In this document: piece after piece, positions 12,259 through 63,961 of the stretch | Position numbering within the stretch: position 1 is the first letter of the stretch | How the letters are laid out: each line of letters opens with the position of its first letter | From: Escherichia phage vB_EcoM-CHD16UKE1 | DNA: 64,000 nucleotides | Sequence record: MZ234030.1 | Strand: one strand, 5' to 3' | Position numbers and translations under genes: made by a program | Notes under the pieces: model-generated | The model's database searches: none | What the model saw: the letters and a program-made list of their open reading frames with translations, nothing else | What the model was told of the DNA's origin: nothing

Positions 12259-12329
12259 ACATTCTGTATATTACCATTCTAAGCTATCGTTCCCTTCTTA
12301 TCATTCCCTAAAATAATTTTCACAAAGTT

Positions 12330-23119: not shown

Positions 23120-23488
23120 ATGATTGAAATTACTCTTAAAAAACCTGAAGATTTTCTGAAAGTAAAAGAAACTTTGACTCGTATGGGAATTGCTAATAAT
23201 AAAGATAAAGTTCTGTATCAGTCCTGTCATATTCTTCAGAAAAAAGGACTATACTATATCGTTCATTTTAAAGAAATGCTTCGTATGGATGGTCGCCAGG
23301 TTGAAATGACAGAAGAAGATGAAGTTCGTCGTGATTCGATTGCATGGCTATTAGAAGATTGGGGACTGATTGAAATCGTTCCTGGTCAAAGAACTTTTAT
23401 GAAAGATTTAACTAATAACTTCCGAGTTATTTCTTTTAAACAAAAACATGAATGGAAACTCGTTCCTAAATATACGATTGGTAATTAA
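23120..23488 (+). CDS. regA: translational repressor RegA (122 aa)
   Basis: ORF track; length and position. Confidence 0.8.
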   Translation: MIEITLKKPEDFLKVKETLTRMGIANNKDKVLYQSCHILQKKGLYYIVHFKEMLRMDGRQVEMTEEDEVRRDSIAWLLEDWGLIEIVPGQRTFMKDLTNNFRVISFKQKHEWKLVPKYTIGN

Positions 23489-23489
23489 T

Positions 23490-23711
23490 ATGACTGCTAT
23501 AACTCCGCAAGAATACATGGCGTCTCTTAAAGAAAAATATAATCTTTCTGCAACAGAAACACTTTTCGATTTACCAGAAAACCTTCAACTAAAATTTCAG
23601 GTAGAATTTCAAAAATTAGTTCACCCAGAACAAAAACACTTTACTGCAGTCGTTAAGTCAATTAATGCAGATGGATTGACAATTTTCACCCGACAAATAG
23701 TACTAATTTAA
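23490..23711 (+). CDS. hypothetical protein (73 aa from ATG 23490)
   Basis: ORF track 23448..23711; ATG right after regA stop. Confidence 0.4.
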   Translation: MTAITPQEYMASLKEKYNLSATETLFDLPENLQLKFQVEFQKLVHPEQKHFTAVVKSINADGLTIFTRQIVLI

Positions 23712-23789: not shown

Positions 23790-26486
23790 ATGAAAGAATT
23801 TTATATCTCTATCGAAACAGTCGGAAATAACATTGTTGAACGTTATATTGATGAAAATGGAAAGGAACGTACTCGCGAAGTAGAATATCTTCCAACTATG
23901 TTTAGACATTGTAAGGAAGAGTCAAAGTACAAAGACATCTATGGTAAAAATTGCGCTCCTCAAAAATTTCCATCAATGAAAGATGCTCGAGATTGGATGA
24001 AGCGAATGGAAGACATCGGTCTCGAAGCTCTTGGTATGAACGATTTTAAACTCGCTTATATCAGTGATACGTATGGTTCAGAAATTGTTTATGACCGAAA
24101 ATTTGTTCGTGTAGCTAACTGTGACATTGAGGTTACTGGTGATAAATTTCCTGATCCAATGAAAGCTGAATATGAAATTGATGCTATCACTCATTATGAT
24201 TCAATTGATGATCGTTTTTATGTTTTCGACCTTTTGAATTCAATGTACGGTTCAGTATCAAAATGGGATGCAAAGTTAGCTGCTAAGCTTGACTGTGAAG
24301 GTGGTGATGAAGTTCCTCAAGAAATTCTTGACCGAGTAATTTATATGCCATTCGATAATGAGCGTGATATGCTCATGGAATATATCAATCTCTGGGAACA
24401 GAAACGACCTGCTATTTTTACTGGTTGGAATATTGAGGGATTTGACGTTCCGTATATCATGAATCGTGTTAAAATGGTTCTCGGTGAACGTAGTATGAAA
24501 CGCTTCTCTCCAATCGGTCGAGTAAAATCTAAACTAATTCAAAATATGTACGGTAGCAAAGAAATTTATTCTATTGATGGCGTATCTATTCTTGATTATT
24601 TAGATTTGTACAAGAAATTCGCTTTTACTAATTTGCCGTCATTCTCTTTGGAATCAGTTGCTCAACATGAAACCAAAAAAGGTAAATTACCGTATGATGG
24701 TCCTATTAATAAACTTCGTGAGACTAATCATCAACGATACATTAGTTATAACATCATTGACGTAGAATCAGTTCAAGCAATTGATAAAATTCGCGGGTTT
24801 ATCGATCTAGTTTTAAGTATGTCTTATTATGCTAAAATGCCTTTTTCTGGTGTAATGAGTCCTATTAAAACTTGGGATGCTATTATTTTTAACTCATTGA
24901 AAGGTGAACATAAGGTTATTCCTCAACAGGGTTCGCACGTTAAACAGAGTTTTCCGGGTGCATTCGTATTTGAACCTAAACCAATTGCTCGTCGATATAT
25001 TATGAGTTTTGACTTGACGTCTCTGTATCCGAGCATTATTCGTCAGGTTAACATTAGTCCTGAGACTATTCGTGGTCAGTTTAAAGTTCATCCAATTCAT
25101 GAATATATTGCAGGAACAGCTCCTAAACCGAGTGATGAATATTCTTGTTCTCCGAATGGATGGATGTATGATAAGCATCAAGAAGGTATCATTCCAAAGG
25201 AAATCGCTAAAGTATTTTTCCAGCGTAAAGACTGGAAAAAGAAAATGTTCGCTGAAGAAATGAATGCCGAAGCTATTAAAAAGATTATTATGAAAGGCGC
25301 AGGGTCTTGTTCAACTAAACCAGAAGTTGAACGATATGTTAAGTTCAGTGATGATTTCTTAAATGAACTGTCGAATTATACTGAATCTGTTCTCAATAGT
25401 CTGATTGAGGAATGTGAAAAAGCTGCTACACTTGCTAATACAAATCAGCTGAACCGTAAAATTCTTATTAACAGTCTTTATGGTGCTCTTGGTAATATTC
25501 ATTTCCGTTACTATGATTTGCGAAATGCTACTGCTATCACAATTTTCGGCCAAGTTGGTATTCAGTGGATTGCTCGTAAAATTAATGAGTATCTGAATAA
25601 AGTATGTGGAACTAATGGCGAAGATTTCATCGCAGCAGGTGATACTGATTCGGTATATGTTTGTGTAGATAAAGTTATTGAAAAAGTTGGTCTTGACCGA
25701 TTCAAAGAGCAGAACGATTTGGTTGAATTTATGAATCAGTTCGGTAAGAAAAAGATGGAACCTATGATTGATGTTGCATATCGTGAGTTATGTGATTATA
25801 TGAATAACCGCGAGCATCTGATGCATATGGACCGTGAAGCTATTTCTTGCCCTCCACTTGGTTCAAAGGGTATTGGTGGATTTTGGAAAGCGAAAAAGCG
25901 TTATGCTCTGAACGTTTATGATATGGAAGATAAACGATTTGCTGAACCGCATCTAAAAATCATGGGTATGGAAACTCAGCAGAGTTCAACGCCTAAAGCG
26001 GTCCAAGAAGCTCTCGAAGAAAGTATTCGTCGTATTCTTCAAGAAGGTGAAGAGTCTGTCCAAGAATACTACAAGAACTTCGAGAAAGAATATCGTCAAC
26101 TTGACTATAAAGTTATTGCTGAAGTAAAAACTGCGAACGATATAGCGAAATATGATGATAAAGGTTGGCCAGGATTTAAATGCCCGTTCCATATTCGCGG
26201 TGTGCTAACTTATCGTCGAGCTGTTAGCGGTTTAGGTGTAGCTCCAATTTTGGATGGAAATAAAGTAATGGTTCTTCCATTGCGTGAAGGAAATCCATTT
26301 GGTGACAAATGCATTGCTTGGCCGTCGGGTACAGAACTTCCAAAAGAAATTCGTTCTGACGTACTGTCTTGGATTGACTACTCAACTTTGTTCCAAAAAT
26401 CGTTTGTTAAACCGCTTGCGGGCATGTGTGAATCGGCTGGTATGGACTATGAAGAAAAAGCTTCGTTAGACTTCCTGTTTGGCTGA
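23790..26486 (+). CDS. 43: DNA polymerase gp43 (898 aa)
   Basis: ORF track; exo motifs and polymerase motifs (DTDS); length matches T4 gp43. Confidence 0.9.
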   Translation: MKEFYISIETVGNNIVERYIDENGKERTREVEYLPTMFRHCKEESKYKDIYGKNCAPQKFPSMKDARDWMKRMEDIGLEALGMNDFKLAYISDTYGSEIVYDRKFVRVANCDIEVTGDKFPDPMKAEYEIDAITHYDSIDDRFYVFDLLNSMYGSVSKWDAKLAAKLDCEGGDEVPQEILDRVIYMPFDNERDMLMEYINLWEQKRPAIFTGWNIEGFDVPYIMNRVKMVLGERSMKRFSPIGRVKSKLIQNMYGSKEIYSIDGVSILDYLDLYKKFAFTNLPSFSLESVAQHETKKGKLPYDGPINKLRETNHQRYISYNIIDVESVQAIDKIRGFIDLVLSMSYYAKMPFSGVMSPIKTWDAIIFNSLKGEHKVIPQQGSHVKQSFPGAFVFEPKPIARRYIMSFDLTSLYPSIIRQVNISPETIRGQFKVHPIHEYIAGTAPKPSDEYSCSPNGWMYDKHQEGIIPKEIAKVFFQRKDWKKKMFAEEMNAEAIKKIIMKGAGSCSTKPEVERYVKFSDDFLNELSNYTESVLNSLIEECEKAATLANTNQLNRKILINSLYGALGNIHFRYYDLRNATAITIFGQVGIQWIARKINEYLNKVCGTNGEDFIAAGDTDSVYVCVDKVIEKVGLDRFKEQNDLVEFMNQFGKKKMEPMIDVAYRELCDYMNNREHLMHMDREAISCPPLGSKGIGGFWKAKKRYALNVYDMEDKRFAEPHLKIMGMETQQSSTPKAVQEALEESIRRILQEGEESVQEYYKNFEKEYRQLDYKVIAEVKTANDIAKYDDKGWPGFKCPFHIRGVLTYRRAVSGLGVAPILDGNKVMVLPLREGNPFGDKCIAWPSGTELPKEIRSDVLSWIDYSTLFQKSFVKPLAGMCESAGMDYEEKASLDFLFG

Positions 26487-26499
26487 TAGAATAAATCTA

Positions 26500-26520
26500 G
26501 GGACCTCCGGGTCCCTTTTT
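26500..26520 (+). terminator. intrinsic terminator (GGGACC-UCCG-GGUCCC + T5)
   Basis: gggacctccgggtcccttttt after gene 43. Confidence 0.65.
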
Positions 26521-26602
26521 CATACAAGTAATATAAATCTATACTTATGAAAAACAGATGATTCTGGACATTTAGAATTCCCTAAAAAATTTTCACAAAA
26601 CT

Positions 26603-26632
26603 GTTTACAAGACTGTTCTTCCATGGTACTAT
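26603..26632 (+). promoter_or_regulatory. T4-type early promoter with conserved leader (PeSL-like cassette)
   Basis: gtttacaagactgttcttccatggtactat + caactatcaactactga. Confidence 0.55.
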
Positions 26633-26669
26633 ACAACTATCAACTACTGATACGGATTTGGAGAATGAA

Positions 26670-26906
26670 ATGAAAATTGTTATGGGATGCTTAGCAGTTT
26701 GTTTAGTTGCATTAGCAGCAGTTCCATTTGTTAGTGTTGAAAATGATACTCAACCTGTGATTGAATCTAGCACCGTTATTCACACTAATGGTAAAATATC
26801 AGTTAAAATTGATGATAATCTTCATGTGAATACAAATGGATCTTTAGGTGTGCAAATGGGTAATACCTGCATAAGCACTACTGGAGTAATTACTACTTGC
26901 ATTTGA
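26670..26906 (+). CDS. small secreted protein with signal peptide (78 aa)
   Basis: ORF track 26658..26906; ATG 26670 with GGAG SD; hydrophobic N-terminus. Confidence 0.45.
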   Translation: MKIVMGCLAVCLVALAAVPFVSVENDTQPVIESSTVIHTNGKISVKIDDNLHVNTNGSLGVQMGNTCISTTGVITTCI

Positions 26907-26916
26907 GGAAATTATT

Positions 26917-27297
26917 ATGAAAATCGCTATTTTGGTTATTGCATTAGGTCTTACTGGTTGTGTAGCTCAAGGACCGGTAGTAAATCAGTCTGATGTAGGA
27001 AAAATTGTAAACTGTTCAAGCAAATTTTATAATCCTAATGTCAAGTGTTATAAAGAAGCTCCAAAGCAAACAGTCGAACAAATGCAGGCGAATTTTGACG
27101 AAGCTATTCGTCCAGATGAATCTGCTCAAGCATATCGTAATTCTGATGTAATTACACACGAAGAAAAAATTGAAAACTACTGCGCCGAAATTTGGGCTAA
27201 TTGGGCTAATAATTACCAATGGCGTACTGATAAAAATGCTCCGATGGAGTATGTAGTGAATTCTTATAATTCATGCGTAAAAAATTTGACTAAGTGA
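26917..27297 (+). CDS. lipoprotein (lipobox LTGC), 126 aa
   Basis: ORF track; MKIAILVIALGLTGC signal. Confidence 0.5.
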   Translation: MKIAILVIALGLTGCVAQGPVVNQSDVGKIVNCSSKFYNPNVKCYKEAPKQTVEQMQANFDEAIRPDESAQAYRNSDVITHEEKIENYCAEIWANWANNYQWRTDKNAPMEYVVNSYNSCVKNLTK

Positions 27298-27304
27298 GGA
27301 AAAC

Positions 27305-27556
27305 ATGGAAACTTTAGTAGCAGGTTCAATTTTTATGGTTTTAGTTTCAGGCGTGTTGGCTATTATTATATACATGCTTCCATGGTTTATTGCTTTGATG
27401 CGTGGGTCAAAATCGACAGTAGGAATCTTTTTCACATCTTTACTGTTTAACTGGTCAATTATTGGTTGGTTTATTACATTTATTTGGTCAATTGCGGGTG
27501 AAACTAAAAAGTCTGCACAACCAAATCAGGTAATTATCATCAGAGAGAAGGAATGA
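27305..27556 (+). CDS. imm: superinfection immunity protein Imm (83 aa)
   Basis: ORF track; membrane protein; length and position next to 42/43. Confidence 0.75.
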   Translation: METLVAGSIFMVLVSGVLAIIIYMLPWFIALMRGSKSTVGIFFTSLLFNWSIIGWFITFIWSIAGETKKSAQPNQVIIIREKE

Positions 27557-27702
27557 AAAGCAAAATTATAGCAGTGTTGCTTTTAATCTTGATGATTATA
27601 ATAAGTATATACTATAGTGTAACGGTTCCTCTTATGATTCCAACTATTATTTTAGGTTGGAGTTTATTACTGTTACAAGTTAAATATGAATGTATCAATT
27701 GA
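27553..27702 (+). CDS. small membrane protein (49 aa; imm.1-like position)
   Basis: ATG 27553 overlapping imm stop to TGA 27700-27702. Confidence 0.35.
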   Translation: MKSKIIAVLLLILMIIISIYYSVTVPLMIPTIILGWSLLLLQVKYECIN

Positions 27703-27709
27703 GGTTTAA

Positions 27710-28450
27710 ATGATTAGTGACTCTATGACAGTTGAAGAAATCCGTCTTCATTTGGGGCTTGCATTAAAAGAAAAAGATTTCGTAGTTGATAAAACTGGTG
27801 TTAAAACTATTGAAATTATTGGCGCATCATTTGTAGCAGATGAACCGTTTATTTTTGGCGCTCTTAATGATGAATACATTCAGCGTGAACTTGAATGGTA
27901 TAAATCTAAGAGTTTGTTTGTTAAAGATATTCCAGGTGAAACACCAAAGATTTGGCAGCAGGTAGCATCTTCTAAAGGCGAAATTAACTCGAATTATGGT
28001 TGGGCTATTTGGTCAGAAGATAACTATGCCCAGTATGATATGTGTTTAGCTGAACTTGGTCAAAATCCTGATTCTCGACGTGGTATCATGATTTATACTC
28101 GTCCATCTATGCAGTTTGACTACAATAAAGATGGTATGTCAGATTTCATGTGTACTAATACAGTACAGTACTTGATTCGTGATAAGAAAGTCAATGCGGT
28201 AGTAAGCATGCGCTCAAATGACGTGGTCTTCGGATTCCGTAATGATTATGCATGGCAAAAATACGTATTAGATAAATTAGTATCTGATTTGAATGCAGGC
28301 GATTCAACTCGTCAGTATAAAGCAGGTTCTATTATATGGAATGTTGGAAGTCTTCATGTATATTCTCGTCATTTTTATTTGGTTGATCATTGGTGGAATA
28401 CTGGCGAAACTCATATTGTGAAAAAAGACTATAAAGGTGAGTGGAAATGA
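27710..28450 (+). CDS. 42: dCMP hydroxymethylase gp42 (246 aa)
   Basis: ORF track; thymidylate-synthase-like fold motifs; length matches T4 gp42. Confidence 0.85.
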   Translation: MISDSMTVEEIRLHLGLALKEKDFVVDKTGVKTIEIIGASFVADEPFIFGALNDEYIQRELEWYKSKSLFVKDIPGETPKIWQQVASSKGEINSNYGWAIWSEDNYAQYDMCLAELGQNPDSRRGIMIYTRPSMQFDYNKDGMSDFMCTNTVQYLIRDKKVNAVVSMRSNDVVFGFRNDYAWQKYVLDKLVSDLNAGDSTRQYKAGSIIWNVGSLHVYSRHFYLVDHWWNTGETHIVKKDYKGEWK

Positions 28451-29298
28451 TTCAATTCGTAATTCCAAGTTATCAACGTGTCGGGGCAGTTTCTGCCCTT
28501 GATATGTTTCCGACTGATTATGAACCGCATATTATAGTGCGTGAACACGAAGAAAAAGCTTATTATGATGCCTATGGGTCTAGAGCTAAAATTGTAACTA
28601 TTCCTGATGATGTTAATGGAATTGCCGGTACTCGTAAAGCAATTACTGATATGTATGCAGGTCAACGAATCTGGATGATTGACGATGATACTACTATCCG
28701 TATGAGTTCAATACGAAAGAGAGACGATAAACGGCGCGTAGATAAAATTAATCAATTAACTCGTGAACAGTTCTATGAATTGATTCAATATGTTGAAGAT
28801 GCCATGGATTGCGGGTATTATCACGGTCATGCTCGTCTACCAATTTTTAAAATTACTTCATCTTGGGGTAATTATCGTGAAAATTCATATGGATTCACGA
28901 ATACATGGTATGATCTCGGAAAACTTACGACAGAACAAATTGGGTATGGAAAAATTGATTTATGCGAAGATATGTATGCATTTCTCAATTTAATTAATCA
29001 AGGTTATCCGCATTTGGCCTTGTTCAAATATCTAGTTGTATCTGGAAAAGCACAAGCTCCTGGCGGGTGTAGTTCAATTCGTAGTAATTCTAAACATAAT
29101 AGAGCGCTTGAGCAAATCAATAGAGAGTTTCCAGAGCAAGCTCGTTGGAAAACTTCTAATATTGAAAAACGAAAATCGTTGGGTGAAGAAGACGAGCCAT
29201 TAAAGGTTCTTCGCATGTGCGTTTCGCGTAAAGAAAAATCAGAAGCATTTCATAAGTTTAATGCTATTCACAAAGTTGAAGTTACGGAAATATCATGA
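28447..29298 (+). CDS. GT-A fold glycosyltransferase (283 aa from ATG 28447)
   Basis: ORF track 28441..29298; N-terminal FVIPSYQR and DxD-like WMIDDDTT; ATGA overlap with gene 42 stop. Confidence 0.55.
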   Translation: MIQFVIPSYQRVGAVSALDMFPTDYEPHIIVREHEEKAYYDAYGSRAKIVTIPDDVNGIAGTRKAITDMYAGQRIWMIDDDTTIRMSSIRKRDDKRRVDKINQLTREQFYELIQYVEDAMDCGYYHGHARLPIFKITSSWGNYRENSYGFTNTWYDLGKLTTEQIGYGKIDLCEDMYAFLNLINQGYPHLALFKYLVVSGKAQAPGGCSSIRSNSKHNRALEQINREFPEQARWKTSNIEKRKSLGEEDEPLKVLRMCVSRKEKSEAFHKFNAIHKVEVTEIS

Positions 29299-30371
29299 AA
29301 ATAGCTATTCTAAATTTAAGTAATACTGTGAGTGATTTTAAAATAGTATCATCAGCCGAAACTATTTTAATAGGCAGGTCTTTAACTGAATTAGGGCATT
29401 CCGTTGATATAATTTCAATGCGAAATACTGAATACACTATATCATTTGATGTAGTAACTGATATAAATTCATACGATAGACTAATAGTAATTAATGGCGC
29501 TATCAATTTCTTCGGTGGAAAGAAAAATCCAATCGTTTTAAATTCATATAAATTGATGGCTGAATATAGAAGTAAAATTTATTATATTTTTACTGATGGC
29601 CGTCTTGGATTTATGCAAGTTCTTCCGGTAGTTCGCAGAAAGAAATTTTCAAGTGAATACAAAGATGAAGACTTATTTGTGTCATCTGACTTTAAAGTAA
29701 TATCTCAGGGCAGAAATCTAGAAATTGCTAAAAAGGCTCATAAGAAAACAACCGAAAGATACGGTAAAGAATTTGAGTATGATTACTTTCCTGTAGATAG
29801 ATATTTTATTCATTCACAGAAACTTAAACCTGCGAATCAAACTATTAAAAAATATGACGTTGTGTACTGCGGCGCGTTTAGAGGTGGGCAACGAGAGTCT
29901 AAAATAGTTGAATTTCTTTTTGATACCAATTTAAATATTAAAATGTTTGGAACTATTAAAGAGAAACAGTTTAAAAATCCTAAATTTCCGTGGAATGTAG
30001 CTCCATCATTCAGTCAAAAAATAGCATCAAATTTGGTTATTGACACGAATAGCCAAGCGATAGCAACTATAGTCATTGGTGATAAAGATTACAATGATAA
30101 TTTTATCACAATTAGAGTCTGGGAGGCCATGGCATCAGATGCTGTGATGCTTATCGATGAAGAGTTTGATAGCGAGCATCTTATTATTGACGACCCTAGA
30201 TTCTACGTTAAGAATAAAAATGATTTTGAAACTTTAGTAAATGAGTTAAAAACCAATGAGTGCTTGAGGCGGGAATTGATTACAATACAACATCAAACCC
30301 TATTTAAGTATCAAAGTTTAAAATCAGAATGGCAAGAAGAGCTTCTTCGCGTTCTCGATATCACCGCTTAA
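29295..30371 (+). CDS. b-gt: beta-glucosyltransferase-family protein (358 aa; diverged from recalled T4 beta-gt)
   Basis: ORF track; blocks INFFGGK, FRGGQRESK, NFITIRVWEAMASDAVMLIDEEFD resemble T4 beta-gt. Confidence 0.65.
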   Translation: MKIAILNLSNTVSDFKIVSSAETILIGRSLTELGHSVDIISMRNTEYTISFDVVTDINSYDRLIVINGAINFFGGKKNPIVLNSYKLMAEYRSKIYYIFTDGRLGFMQVLPVVRRKKFSSEYKDEDLFVSSDFKVISQGRNLEIAKKAHKKTTERYGKEFEYDYFPVDRYFIHSQKLKPANQTIKKYDVVYCGAFRGGQRESKIVEFLFDTNLNIKMFGTIKEKQFKNPKFPWNVAPSFSQKIASNLVIDTNSQAIATIVIGDKDYNDNFITIRVWEAMASDAVMLIDEEFDSEHLIIDDPRFYVKNKNDFETLVNELKTNECLRRELITIQHQTLFKYQSLKSEWQEELLRVLDITA

Positions 30372-34123: not shown

Positions 34124-34417
34124 ATGAAAAAATTTATCTTTGCTGCAATTTTTGCTTTATCTTCTTGCGCTGCTCAGCCTGCTATGGCGGGTTATGACAA
34201 AGATTTGTGCGAATGGTCTATGACTGCAGATCAGACTGAAGTTGAAATTCAAATTGAAGCGGATATTATGAATATCGTTGAACGTGATCGTCCTGAAATG
34301 AAAGCTGAAGTGCAAAAACAACTTAAATCTGGTGGTGTAATGCAGTATAATTATGTTCTGTATTGCGATAAAAACTTTAATAATAAAAATATCATCGCTG
34401 AAGTGGTAGGTGAGTAA
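34124..34417 (+). CDS. sp: Spackle (Sp) periplasmic superinfection-exclusion protein, 97 aa
   Basis: ORF track; signal peptide; length and position. Confidence 0.65.
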   Translation: MKKFIFAAIFALSSCAAQPAMAGYDKDLCEWSMTADQTEVEIQIEADIMNIVERDRPEMKAEVQKQLKSGGVMQYNYVLYCDKNFNNKNIIAEVVGE

Positions 34418-63366: not shown

Positions 63367-63954
63367 TTATACTCTTGGACCATATATTACTCCAACATTT
63401 TGCCAAGTTGGAGCAGATCCTATGACAGCATAACCTGCTGCTCCTCCTGCACCAACCTTTAGAACTTTACCACCATCAGACCAGGCATTTTGTCCATTTC
63501 CTCCGGCATCGCCGCCCTGGCCAGAGTGAGCATTTCCGTATTGGTAACCACCTCCTGGGGCGACGTATGAAGCTGCGCCACCTGAGTAACCACCGCCACC
63601 ACCTGGGCCAAATGGTCTTCCGCCGCCACCACCAATATCTTGCCAGTCTGCCCCTGAGTGAACACGGTAAGCAATGCCGCCACCACCGCCTCCGCCACCA
63701 CAGATTACTCCACCATTGTTAATTCTTAATCGTCCACCAATGTCGTTTTGAATACAATGCCCGCCTTGTTGTCCATTACCATCTCCACCGGAATGAGTCC
63801 ATCCACCTTGTCCACCTCTACCCCACATATGAGCGCCAATAATATTTAACTGAACATATTCATTTGGTGTATCTCCGTACATGAAGAATAAAGGAACATC
63901 TTTAGAGAACATATTCATTTGGTGTATCTCCGTACATGAAGAATAAAGGAACAT
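63367..63954 (-). CDS. 38: gp38 receptor-recognising adhesin, glycine-rich C-terminal domain ORF (195 aa), T2-type
   Basis: ORF track; polyglycine motifs; [20 protein letters not shown] and [19 protein letters not shown] blocks as recalled from T2 gp38. Confidence 0.7.
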
Positions 63955-63961
63955 CTTTAGA
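63852..63961 (-). repeat. perfect 55-bp direct tandem duplication (2 copies) at the 5' end of the gene 38 ORF
   Basis: identical units at 63852-63906 and 63907-63961; flanks do not extend the match. Confidence 0.9.

Follow-up and report, generated by a model that had tools for sequence, protein, structure and literature searches.

Organization of the region between genes 43 and 42

The 64,000-nucleotide stretch of Escherichia phage vB_EcoM-CHD16UKE1 analyzed here (MZ234030.1; referred to as the window, with positions counted from its first letter) carries, between the DNA polymerase gene and gene 42, a run of small genes that includes imm, the gene for the inner-membrane protein of superinfection immunity. 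The region is flanked by two core genes on the plus strand, gene 43 (DNA polymerase, 23790–26486) and gene 42 (27710–28450). Between them, and on the same strand, an intrinsic terminator and an early-promoter cassette are followed by an open reading frame (ORF) of 78 amino acids (ORF78, 26670–26906), a 126-amino-acid ORF (26917–27297) that corresponds to imm.1 of phage T4, imm itself (27305–27556), and a 49-amino-acid ORF for a small membrane protein (ORF49, or gp42.1, 27553–27702). Lipoproteins of the Imm.1 family were found next to imm in every T4-like genus sampled, and this linkage makes Imm.1 a candidate partner of Imm.

The imm product matched PF14373 (E 7.7e-16) and phrog_1039, "immunity to superinfection", and is 98.8% identical to that of T4 record KJ477684.1. 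ORF49 matched phrog_3610 (E 9.5e-26). The segment from 26480 to 27720 is 100% identical to several Tequatrovirus genomes, such as vB_EcoM-CHD2BS1 and G3F6, and over 500 T4-like records match it at 90% identity or higher. Both ORF78 and the 126-amino-acid ORF are conserved in hundreds of phage genomes.

The gap between imm.1 and imm is 7 nt, and the ATG of ORF49 overlaps the stop codon of imm (ATGA). No clear terminator was detected between 26521 and 27800 in a terminator scan, the sole further hit in that interval being a weak 5-bp stem within ORF78 (26706–26719). Together with the early promoter and the good ribosome-binding sites, these features point to a single early transcript, ORF78-imm.1-imm-42.1, predicted to encode four small envelope proteins. 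As a whole, the region is probably best explained as a T4-type early transcription unit after gene 43, composed of a terminator, an early promoter of the PeSL type, a variable slot, imm.1, imm, and 42.1.

ORF49 contains two hydrophobic segments and bears the name gp42.1 in the RB51 record. Its sequence is almost identical in T4, yet NC_000866 annotates nothing in that 153-bp gap. Both Shigella phage SP18 and the metagenomic locus L012 have a homolog directly 3′ of imm (47 and 49 aa, respectively). The imm module may include ORF49 as a third member.

The 126-residue protein is the ortholog of T4 Imm.1

The 126-amino-acid ORF shares 96.8% amino-acid identity with T4 imm.1 and occupies the same place, between 43 and imm and behind the same promoter. 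Its product matched PF17578 (DUF5481) over the entire profile (positions 1–103 of 103) with 231.6 bits and an E-value of 1.2e-69, compared to a curated cutoff of 27 bits, and its residues 1–126 aligned with positions 2–148 of phrog_1754 (E 2.5e-43). These matches, taken with the gene order, show that by sequence and position the protein is the ortholog of T4 Imm.1. The first-pass annotation had taken 43 and imm to be adjacent in T4 and had regarded both exported proteins of the window as extra relative to that phage. In NC_000866, imm.1 (T4p046, NP_049661) sits between the two genes, and only ORF78, which is missing at the T4 locus, is extra. Imm.1 is instead encoded by a conserved core gene that T4 possesses as well, and that is present wherever imm is in Tequatrovirus (501 records for each gene).

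The two imm.1 loci share the terminator, promoter, and leader upstream, as well as the position of the lipobox. In contrast, the lipobox is LTGC in the window and LAGC in T4, the window protein carries an extra C-terminal Lys due to a 1-nt indel at the stop codon, and imm.1 is the second gene of the transcript in the window but the first in T4.

The assignment of the protein as a lipoprotein with the lipobox LTGC, made in the first-pass annotation, was borne out. The lipoprotein rule applied (PS51257-type) looks for [LVI][ASTVI][GAS]C with the Cys at 15–35, a basic residue in the first seven, and an uncharged h-region; Imm.1 has the lipobox ILVIALGLTGC with Cys15, K2, and an uncharged h-region. 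The +2 residue is Val in the window and G, S, Q, or A in six homologs checked, and Asp occupies this position in none of the seven lipobox-bearing family members checked. In E. coli, lipoproteins without Asp at +2 after the lipid-modified Cys are sorted to the outer membrane, so sorting of Imm.1 to the inner leaflet of the outer membrane is predicted. In addition to the lipid-modified Cys, each of these seven members has two or four further cysteines (four in the Imm.1 of the window), which fits an oxidizing periplasmic site at the inner face of the outer membrane. From these sequence features, we infer that Imm.1 is exported, lipid-modified at Cys15, and located in the inner leaflet of the outer membrane.

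The AlphaFold2 model of Imm.1 reaches a predicted local distance difference test score (pLDDT) of 65.4, and its only confident part is a C-terminal helical hairpin at residues 81–125 (pLDDT ~90), in which Cys89 and Cys120 would lie close to each other; the N-terminal half is either disordered or of uncertain structure. A Foldseek search of the model against the Protein Data Bank (PDB) returned no hit with an E-value below 4, and no PDB sequence hit was obtained for Imm.1. A DNA-binding role for the family was considered and dropped, as net charge and pI are not consistent from one mature member to another.

The family is small. A full HMMER scan of cluster representatives yielded six clusters at 50% identity among 1.84 billion proteins, a word-indexed search yielded 3–6 clusters, and a scan of IMG/VR added nothing beyond the known clusters. 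In the phage collection, Pfam-detectable Imm.1 occurs only in Tequatrovirus (501 records) and Mosigvirus (155 records).

The RefSeq product name of imm.1 is "iduronate sulfatase" in NC_000866 (T4p046) and NC_054931 (T2), and other records label the product "immunity" or "immunity protein". Neither the Pfam nor the PHROG matches support a sulfatase, and the immunity label was apparently taken from the gene name alone.

Imm.1-family lipoproteins adjoin imm in T4-like phages

Every divergent Pfam-detectable Imm.1 member lies directly upstream of a PF14373 imm gene, and three gene contexts were observed: 43, imm.1, imm, 42 in the window, T4, and the divergent metagenomic relatives L007, L009, and L011; dmd, imm.1, imm, sp in Mosigvirus phage SF (L003 3995–5030); and frd.3, imm.1, imm, 49-aa ORF in L012.

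In five further T4-like groups, the neighbor of imm is likewise a lipoprotein, of ~147–167 aa after start correction. It lies upstream of imm in Salmonella phage S16, a Klebsiella T4-like phage, and Serratia phage PS2, and downstream in Shigella phage SP18 and Escherichia phage IME08. For these longer proteins, the Pfam model and hhalign catch only the N-terminal motif QG(D/E)VV.A.E(V/I)GK; the hhalign comparison with mature DUF5481 covered 27 columns at a probability of 72%, and the local HMM was borderline. All five matched phrog_1754 over the full length (E 1e-15 to 1e-52), which settles their kinship to Imm.1.

Beyond the equal counts in Tequatrovirus, imm and the lipoprotein were found in 156 and 155 records, respectively, of Mosigvirus, and in 135 records each of Klebsiella phages; the lipoprotein was also found in 132 records of Dhakavirus, Gaprivervirus, and others. 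The Imm.1 family, defined by phrog_1754, is confined to T4-like phages and adjoins imm in all seven genera sampled. The pairing survives both relocation, as seen next to sp in Mosigvirus, and a change in order, as seen in Dhakavirus and Gaprivervirus.

In Mosigvirus phage SF, dmd and the 61.x genes, rather than 43 and 42, flank a contiguous run of the Imm.1 homolog, imm, and the sp homolog. A promoter-like sequence of its own, GTTTAC...TATTAT, precedes Mosigvirus imm, between imm.1 and imm. In the window, sp, which the first-pass annotation had named as a neighbor of the locus, lies at 34124–34414, 6.6 kb downstream of imm.

The early-promoter cassette

The terminator and the early promoter with its conserved leader, both described in the first-pass annotation, were recovered. 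The intrinsic terminator 3′ of gene 43 (26499–26521, plus strand) consists of the hairpin AGGGACC-TCCG-GGTCCCT, with a 7-bp stem containing five G-C pairs and a 4-nt loop, followed by a T-run. It is kept in T4, CT01, RB51, and the divergent relatives L007, L009, and L011, and it also serves as the stem-loop of a PeSL-type element, the remainder of which is the promoter cassette (26583–26669, plus strand) delineated by promoter scan, repeat families, and the PeSL consensus. Within the cassette, an AT-rich upstream part (26583–26602) precedes a promoter of the sigma-70/T4-early type, in which the −35 element TTTACA (26604–26609) is separated by 17 nt from the −10 element TACTAT (26627–26632), with an extended −10 TG at 26624–26625. 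The Shine-Dalgarno sequence of ORF78, GGAG (26660–26663), lies 3′ of the conserved leader.

The 24-nt motif of promoter core and leader, TGGTACTATACAACTATCAACTAC, matched five sites in the window at no more than three mismatches, compared to none in 100 shuffled sequences. The whole cassette corresponds to the repeat families D1 and D4 of the window repeat search. Longer alignable copies lie at ~1373, 55887, 56394, and 59535 and partial copies at 12310 and 47892, giving 5–7 cassette copies within the window. The predicted fold of the leader RNA was not more stable than that of shuffled sequence (z = −0.3).

In the PST/T4 pair, the PeSL consensus is TTTACW N17 TAYWAT, located between a stem-loop and a Shine-Dalgarno sequence with its start codon (PMC4122927), and PeSL elements adjoin indels between close relatives of T4-like phages (PMC4122927; PMC2839356). 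The cassette of the window shows the same order of stem-loop, AT-rich tract, TTTACW N17 TAYWAT promoter, Shine-Dalgarno sequence, and start codon; it also occurs in several genomic copies and marks a site of insertion, deletion, or replacement among close relatives. It thus resembles the published elements (Arbiol et al. 2010; Comeau et al. 2014) in its terminator stem-loop, AT-rich tract, sigma-70-like promoter, repetition, and position beside an indel or replacement site. Unlike those elements, the window copy lies between core genes (43 and 42) and not in a large hyperplastic region, a single cassette flanks the variable ORF (CT01 has a second, partial copy), and the right junction is an 8-bp ATGAAAAT microhomology instead of a second PeSL. 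Recombination through an excised mini-circle is reportedly an experimental property of PeSL elements, from the 2010 work of Arbiol and colleagues.

A 38-aa ORF on the minus strand (26520–26636) spans the promoter cassette and is annotated as a coding sequence in MZ234027 (CHD2BS1_051). It is almost certainly spurious.

A variable slot upstream of imm.1

Pairwise alignment showed that T4 and the window are near-identical from the end of gene 43 to the Shine-Dalgarno sequence; the few substitutions and two 1-nt indels that separate them lie around the terminator and the AT-rich tract upstream of the promoter. From 26594 to 26669, the stretch of promoter core and leader, the two sequences are identical, and in T4 the segment leads directly into imm.1. 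A 247-bp segment of the window (26670–26916, plus strand), comprising ORF78 and the GAGGA ribosome-binding site of imm.1, has no counterpart in T4, for which the comparison covered a 10-kb region around the slot. An 8-bp direct repeat, ATGAAAAT, flanks the indel (26670–26677 and 26917–26924) and exists because ORF78 and imm.1 both start with MKI.

Four states of the slot were observed. ORF78 occupies it in 325 phage records, with one copy each; all of the listed hits are of the Tequatrovirus type with genomes of ~165–170 kb, and about two-thirds of the close relatives of T4 carry the gene. RB51ncORF048c, an unrelated 83-aa ORF with neither an export signal nor a Pfam family (RB51 locus L026 349–600), was found in 31 Tequatrovirus records including T2, RB27, RB51, and RB68; these phages have the same promoter, followed by the canonical 3′ end of the cassette. 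The slot is empty in T4 and mosaic in Shigella phage CT01 (L004 1209–2046), and ~145 further Tequatrovirus records lie outside the individually inspected set. These results show that the slot between the promoter and imm.1 is hyperplastic among Tequatrovirus phages. The locus is a small and clean case in which a promoter cassette flanked by core genes hosts gene turnover, with T4 itself in the empty state.

Downstream of the CT01 promoter, the N-terminal ~30 codons of imm.1 read in frame into the middle part of ORF78; a second, partial promoter cassette and an intact imm.1 come next. This mosaic looks like the footprint of cassette-mediated recombination. For RB51ncORF048c, Dhakavirus genomes such as that of IME08 contain a homolog with 57% identity ~25 kb away from the imm locus, suggesting that this small ORF moves between loci and genera.

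The direction of the ORF78 indel can be read in two ways. The T4 leader is that of ORF78, and the ribosome-binding site of imm.1, GAGGAAATTATT, is common to the window and RB51 types, which favors a microhomology deletion in T4. Conversely, in the outgroups L007, L009, L011, L012, and Mosigvirus, the promoter lies directly before imm.1 with a GGAGAAT-type site, which favors an insertion of ORF78.

ORF78

ORF78 matched phrog_4189 (E 4e-30), whereas no Pfam match, no PADLOC match, and no significant PDB sequence hit were obtained, and homology to anything characterized was not detectable. In the phage-record search, it is known only from Tequatrovirus among the hits listed. The first-pass annotation had given its product a signal peptide. 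The ORF and its N-terminal character stand, with K2 and a hydrophobic stretch at residues 3–23; A14-L15-A16 forms a possible AXA site (ALA↓A), and the hydrophobic stretch is lengthened by at least seven residues in some alleles. On these features, a cleavable signal peptide and a signal anchor appear equally possible. The C-terminal part is beta-rich and contains Cys67 and Cys77, and across alleles the C-terminus conserves two cysteines ten residues apart (CxxxxxxxxxC) and a TTGVITTCI tail. AlphaFold2 gave a poor model (pLDDT 52.6), with an N-terminal helix and then short strands.

In principle, ORF78 could be an ORF that arose by chance, or a remnant undergoing decay, in a leader prone to recombination. 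It is missing from T4, swapped for an unrelated ORF in T2 and RB51, and truncated or chimeric in CT01 and in the database entries P0016 and P0017, and both the missing Pfam family and the poor model would agree with such an origin. Nevertheless, full-length ORF78 is kept in most of the 325 records, with a coverage of at least 80% in 296 of them, its Shine-Dalgarno sequence is good and correctly spaced, and its C-terminal motif is conserved. In addition, comparison with the JoYop and PhiZZ23 alleles gave a ratio of nonsynonymous to synonymous divergence (dN/dS) of 0.23–0.37 at dS 0.4–0.6, whereas the flanking imm.1 and imm gave dS 0.06–0.21 and dN/dS of at most 0.15. The higher dS combined with the low dN/dS indicates that the ORF78 alleles are older or exchanged, and constrained. 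It is concluded from these sequence comparisons that ORF78 behaves as a real gene under purifying selection, and a nonfunctional ORF is very improbable.

ORF78 would be a dispensable accessory gene, co-transcribed with imm.1 and imm, whose small product is either exported to the periplasm or held in the membrane by an anchor. A role in the envelope or in phage-phage competition is the most likely one for it, although with less than even odds.

In-frame tandem duplications of seven residues (21-nt unit) were seen in the hydrophobic N-terminus of four ORF78 alleles (P0008, P0014, P0015, and L005 826–1083). In P0014, the duplication creates the canonical lipobox LAAC, and UniRef labels this entry "Lipoprotein". 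The lipoprotein rule accepts P0014 and rejects the ORF78 of the window.

Possible roles of Imm.1 and ORF78

Imm and Sp are the two known exclusion proteins of T4 (PMC7677548; PMC9311878). Imm blocks the superinfecting DNA at the inner membrane, whereas Sp inhibits the gp5 tail lysozyme in the periplasm (PMC9311878; PMC7677548; note in NC_000866). Imm.1 and ORF78 resemble them as predicted early small envelope proteins, and Imm.1 is predicted to be co-transcribed with imm and is contiguous with imm and sp in Mosigvirus. In contrast, neither Imm nor Sp shows sequence similarity to Imm.1 or ORF78, and the three proteins differ in type, Imm.1 being a predicted lipoprotein, Imm a polytopic membrane protein, and Sp a soluble periplasmic protein. 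To our knowledge, how Imm keeps DNA from entering has not been clear since the 1970s, with discussion confined to imm and sp.

The first-pass annotation had proposed additional exclusion or envelope-modifying functions for both exported proteins. For Imm.1, the export signals and paired cysteines of the two proteins and the linkage to imm lend this circumstantial support, whereas for ORF78 the pointers are its predicted export and co-transcription with imm.1 and imm. Given its linkage to imm through relocation and order change, Imm.1 is a candidate for an Imm partner in the outer membrane or periplasm. Its most likely role, although with less than even odds, would be that of a periplasmic or outer-membrane accessory arm of the Imm-dependent block on the entry of T-even superinfecting DNA. 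The protein would be lipid-anchored in the outer membrane, with a disulfide-stapled helical domain facing into the periplasm. Imm.1 and Imm, possibly with gp42.1, would form a trans-envelope module that stops the superinfecting tail tube and DNA from crossing the periplasm, and ORF78-type slot genes would be exchangeable add-ons that tune the Imm.1-Imm barrier against competitors. Such a complete exclusion module, with its add-ons, is a doubtful proposal.

Several points weigh against a function of Imm.1 and ORF78 in exclusion. For the family members P0019 and P0020, the lipobox Cys is lost and a plain signal peptide is present instead, indicating that the lipid anchor is not essential. Imm-family proteins of the non-T4-like phages Klebsiella 37P2 and Acinetobacter LZ35 (Guernseyvirinae, Obolenskvirus) have no lipoprotein neighbor, indicating that Imm.1 is not strictly required for Imm-family function, and T4 and many relatives thrive without ORF78. 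The structure models are weak (pLDDT 65 for Imm.1 and 53 for ORF78), and the fold search for Imm.1 was empty. T4-like replication modules generally conserve gene order, and the adjacency may partly be plain synteny. Plasmid-borne T4 imm alone reportedly gives exclusion, as Lu and Henning are said to have found in 1989. Finally, literature searches for imm.1, DUF5481/PF17578, and Imm with a lipoprotein found no functional study, and no paper or experiment was found that ties Imm.1 or ORF78 to a phenotype.

The missing functional study also leaves room for an envelope protein that acts apart from exclusion, in lysis timing or inhibition, envelope stabilization, or interference with host envelope defense, and whose adjacency to imm reflects cassette inheritance. 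Such a role is roughly as likely as that of a partner of Imm. Imm homologs in other phage groups work without a partner of this kind, Imm.1 evolves much faster than Imm (32% and 64% identity, respectively, between Tequatrovirus and Mosigvirus), and Mosigvirus imm has a promoter-like sequence of its own. Against this, the pair persists through relocation, inversion, and a hypervariable neighborhood across the seven sampled genera with near 1:1 co-occurrence, and the Mosigvirus pair lies directly against sp, giving three contiguous envelope genes, two of which are known exclusion genes.

A third explanation, in which Imm.1 or ORF78 masks the phage's own outer-membrane receptor in the manner of T5 Llp or of Cor of phi80/N15-type phages, and thereby stops superinfection and protects released progeny, is hardly credible. 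Like Llp and Cor, both are small exported phage proteins whose target would be the infected cell's envelope, Imm.1 is predicted to be an outer-membrane lipoprotein, the ORF78 allele P0014 gains a lipobox by its 7-aa duplication, and Llp is an established phage lipoprotein of that action (PMC9586334). However, ORF78, P0014, and Imm.1 showed no similarity to Cor (phrog_1119) or Llp even at E-values up to 10, the sole Cor hit being a signal-peptide-level match of the PS2 homolog. In addition, Imm.1 identity is at least 96% in T2 and T4, and T6 carries the protein too. These three phages use different receptors (FadL/OmpF, OmpC, and Tsx, respectively), and a protein that is near-invariant among them argues against receptor-specific masking. 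The PADLOC defense models returned nothing meaningful.

Much of the locus is already known: the ORFs, among them the named T4 gene imm.1, are annotated in hundreds of public genomes, public resources contain the Pfam and PHROG families, and the cassette type is published. The sole mention of Imm.1 found in the literature is as a marker gene of the T4 group (PMC5885020), and no paper was found on its function or its systematic pairing with imm. The Imm.1-imm pairing is a modest new lead, not a discovery. Lipoproteins of the Imm.1 family that accompany imm throughout the T4-like phages provide a concrete and cheaply testable hypothesis on the action of Imm.

Other features of the window

Upstream of gene 43, an 87-aa ORF (23448–23711, plus strand) follows regA, whose end it overlaps, and matched PF25760 (Phage_RB18_ORF43) with an E-value of 1.6e-29. 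T4 has only a 78-bp gap at this site, making the ORF another small gene that is absent from T4. On the other side of the region, 3′ of gene 42 (28441–30371, plus strand), a TAGT-family glycosyltransferase gene (285 aa) is accompanied by a T4 beta-glucosyltransferase-like gene (358 aa), whereas T4 has a single beta-gt followed by segA; the arrangement with two glycosyltransferases is T2/T6/RB51-like. Near the end of the window (63852–63961), a perfect 55-bp tandem duplication is present in two copies with 100% identity (repeat family D10).

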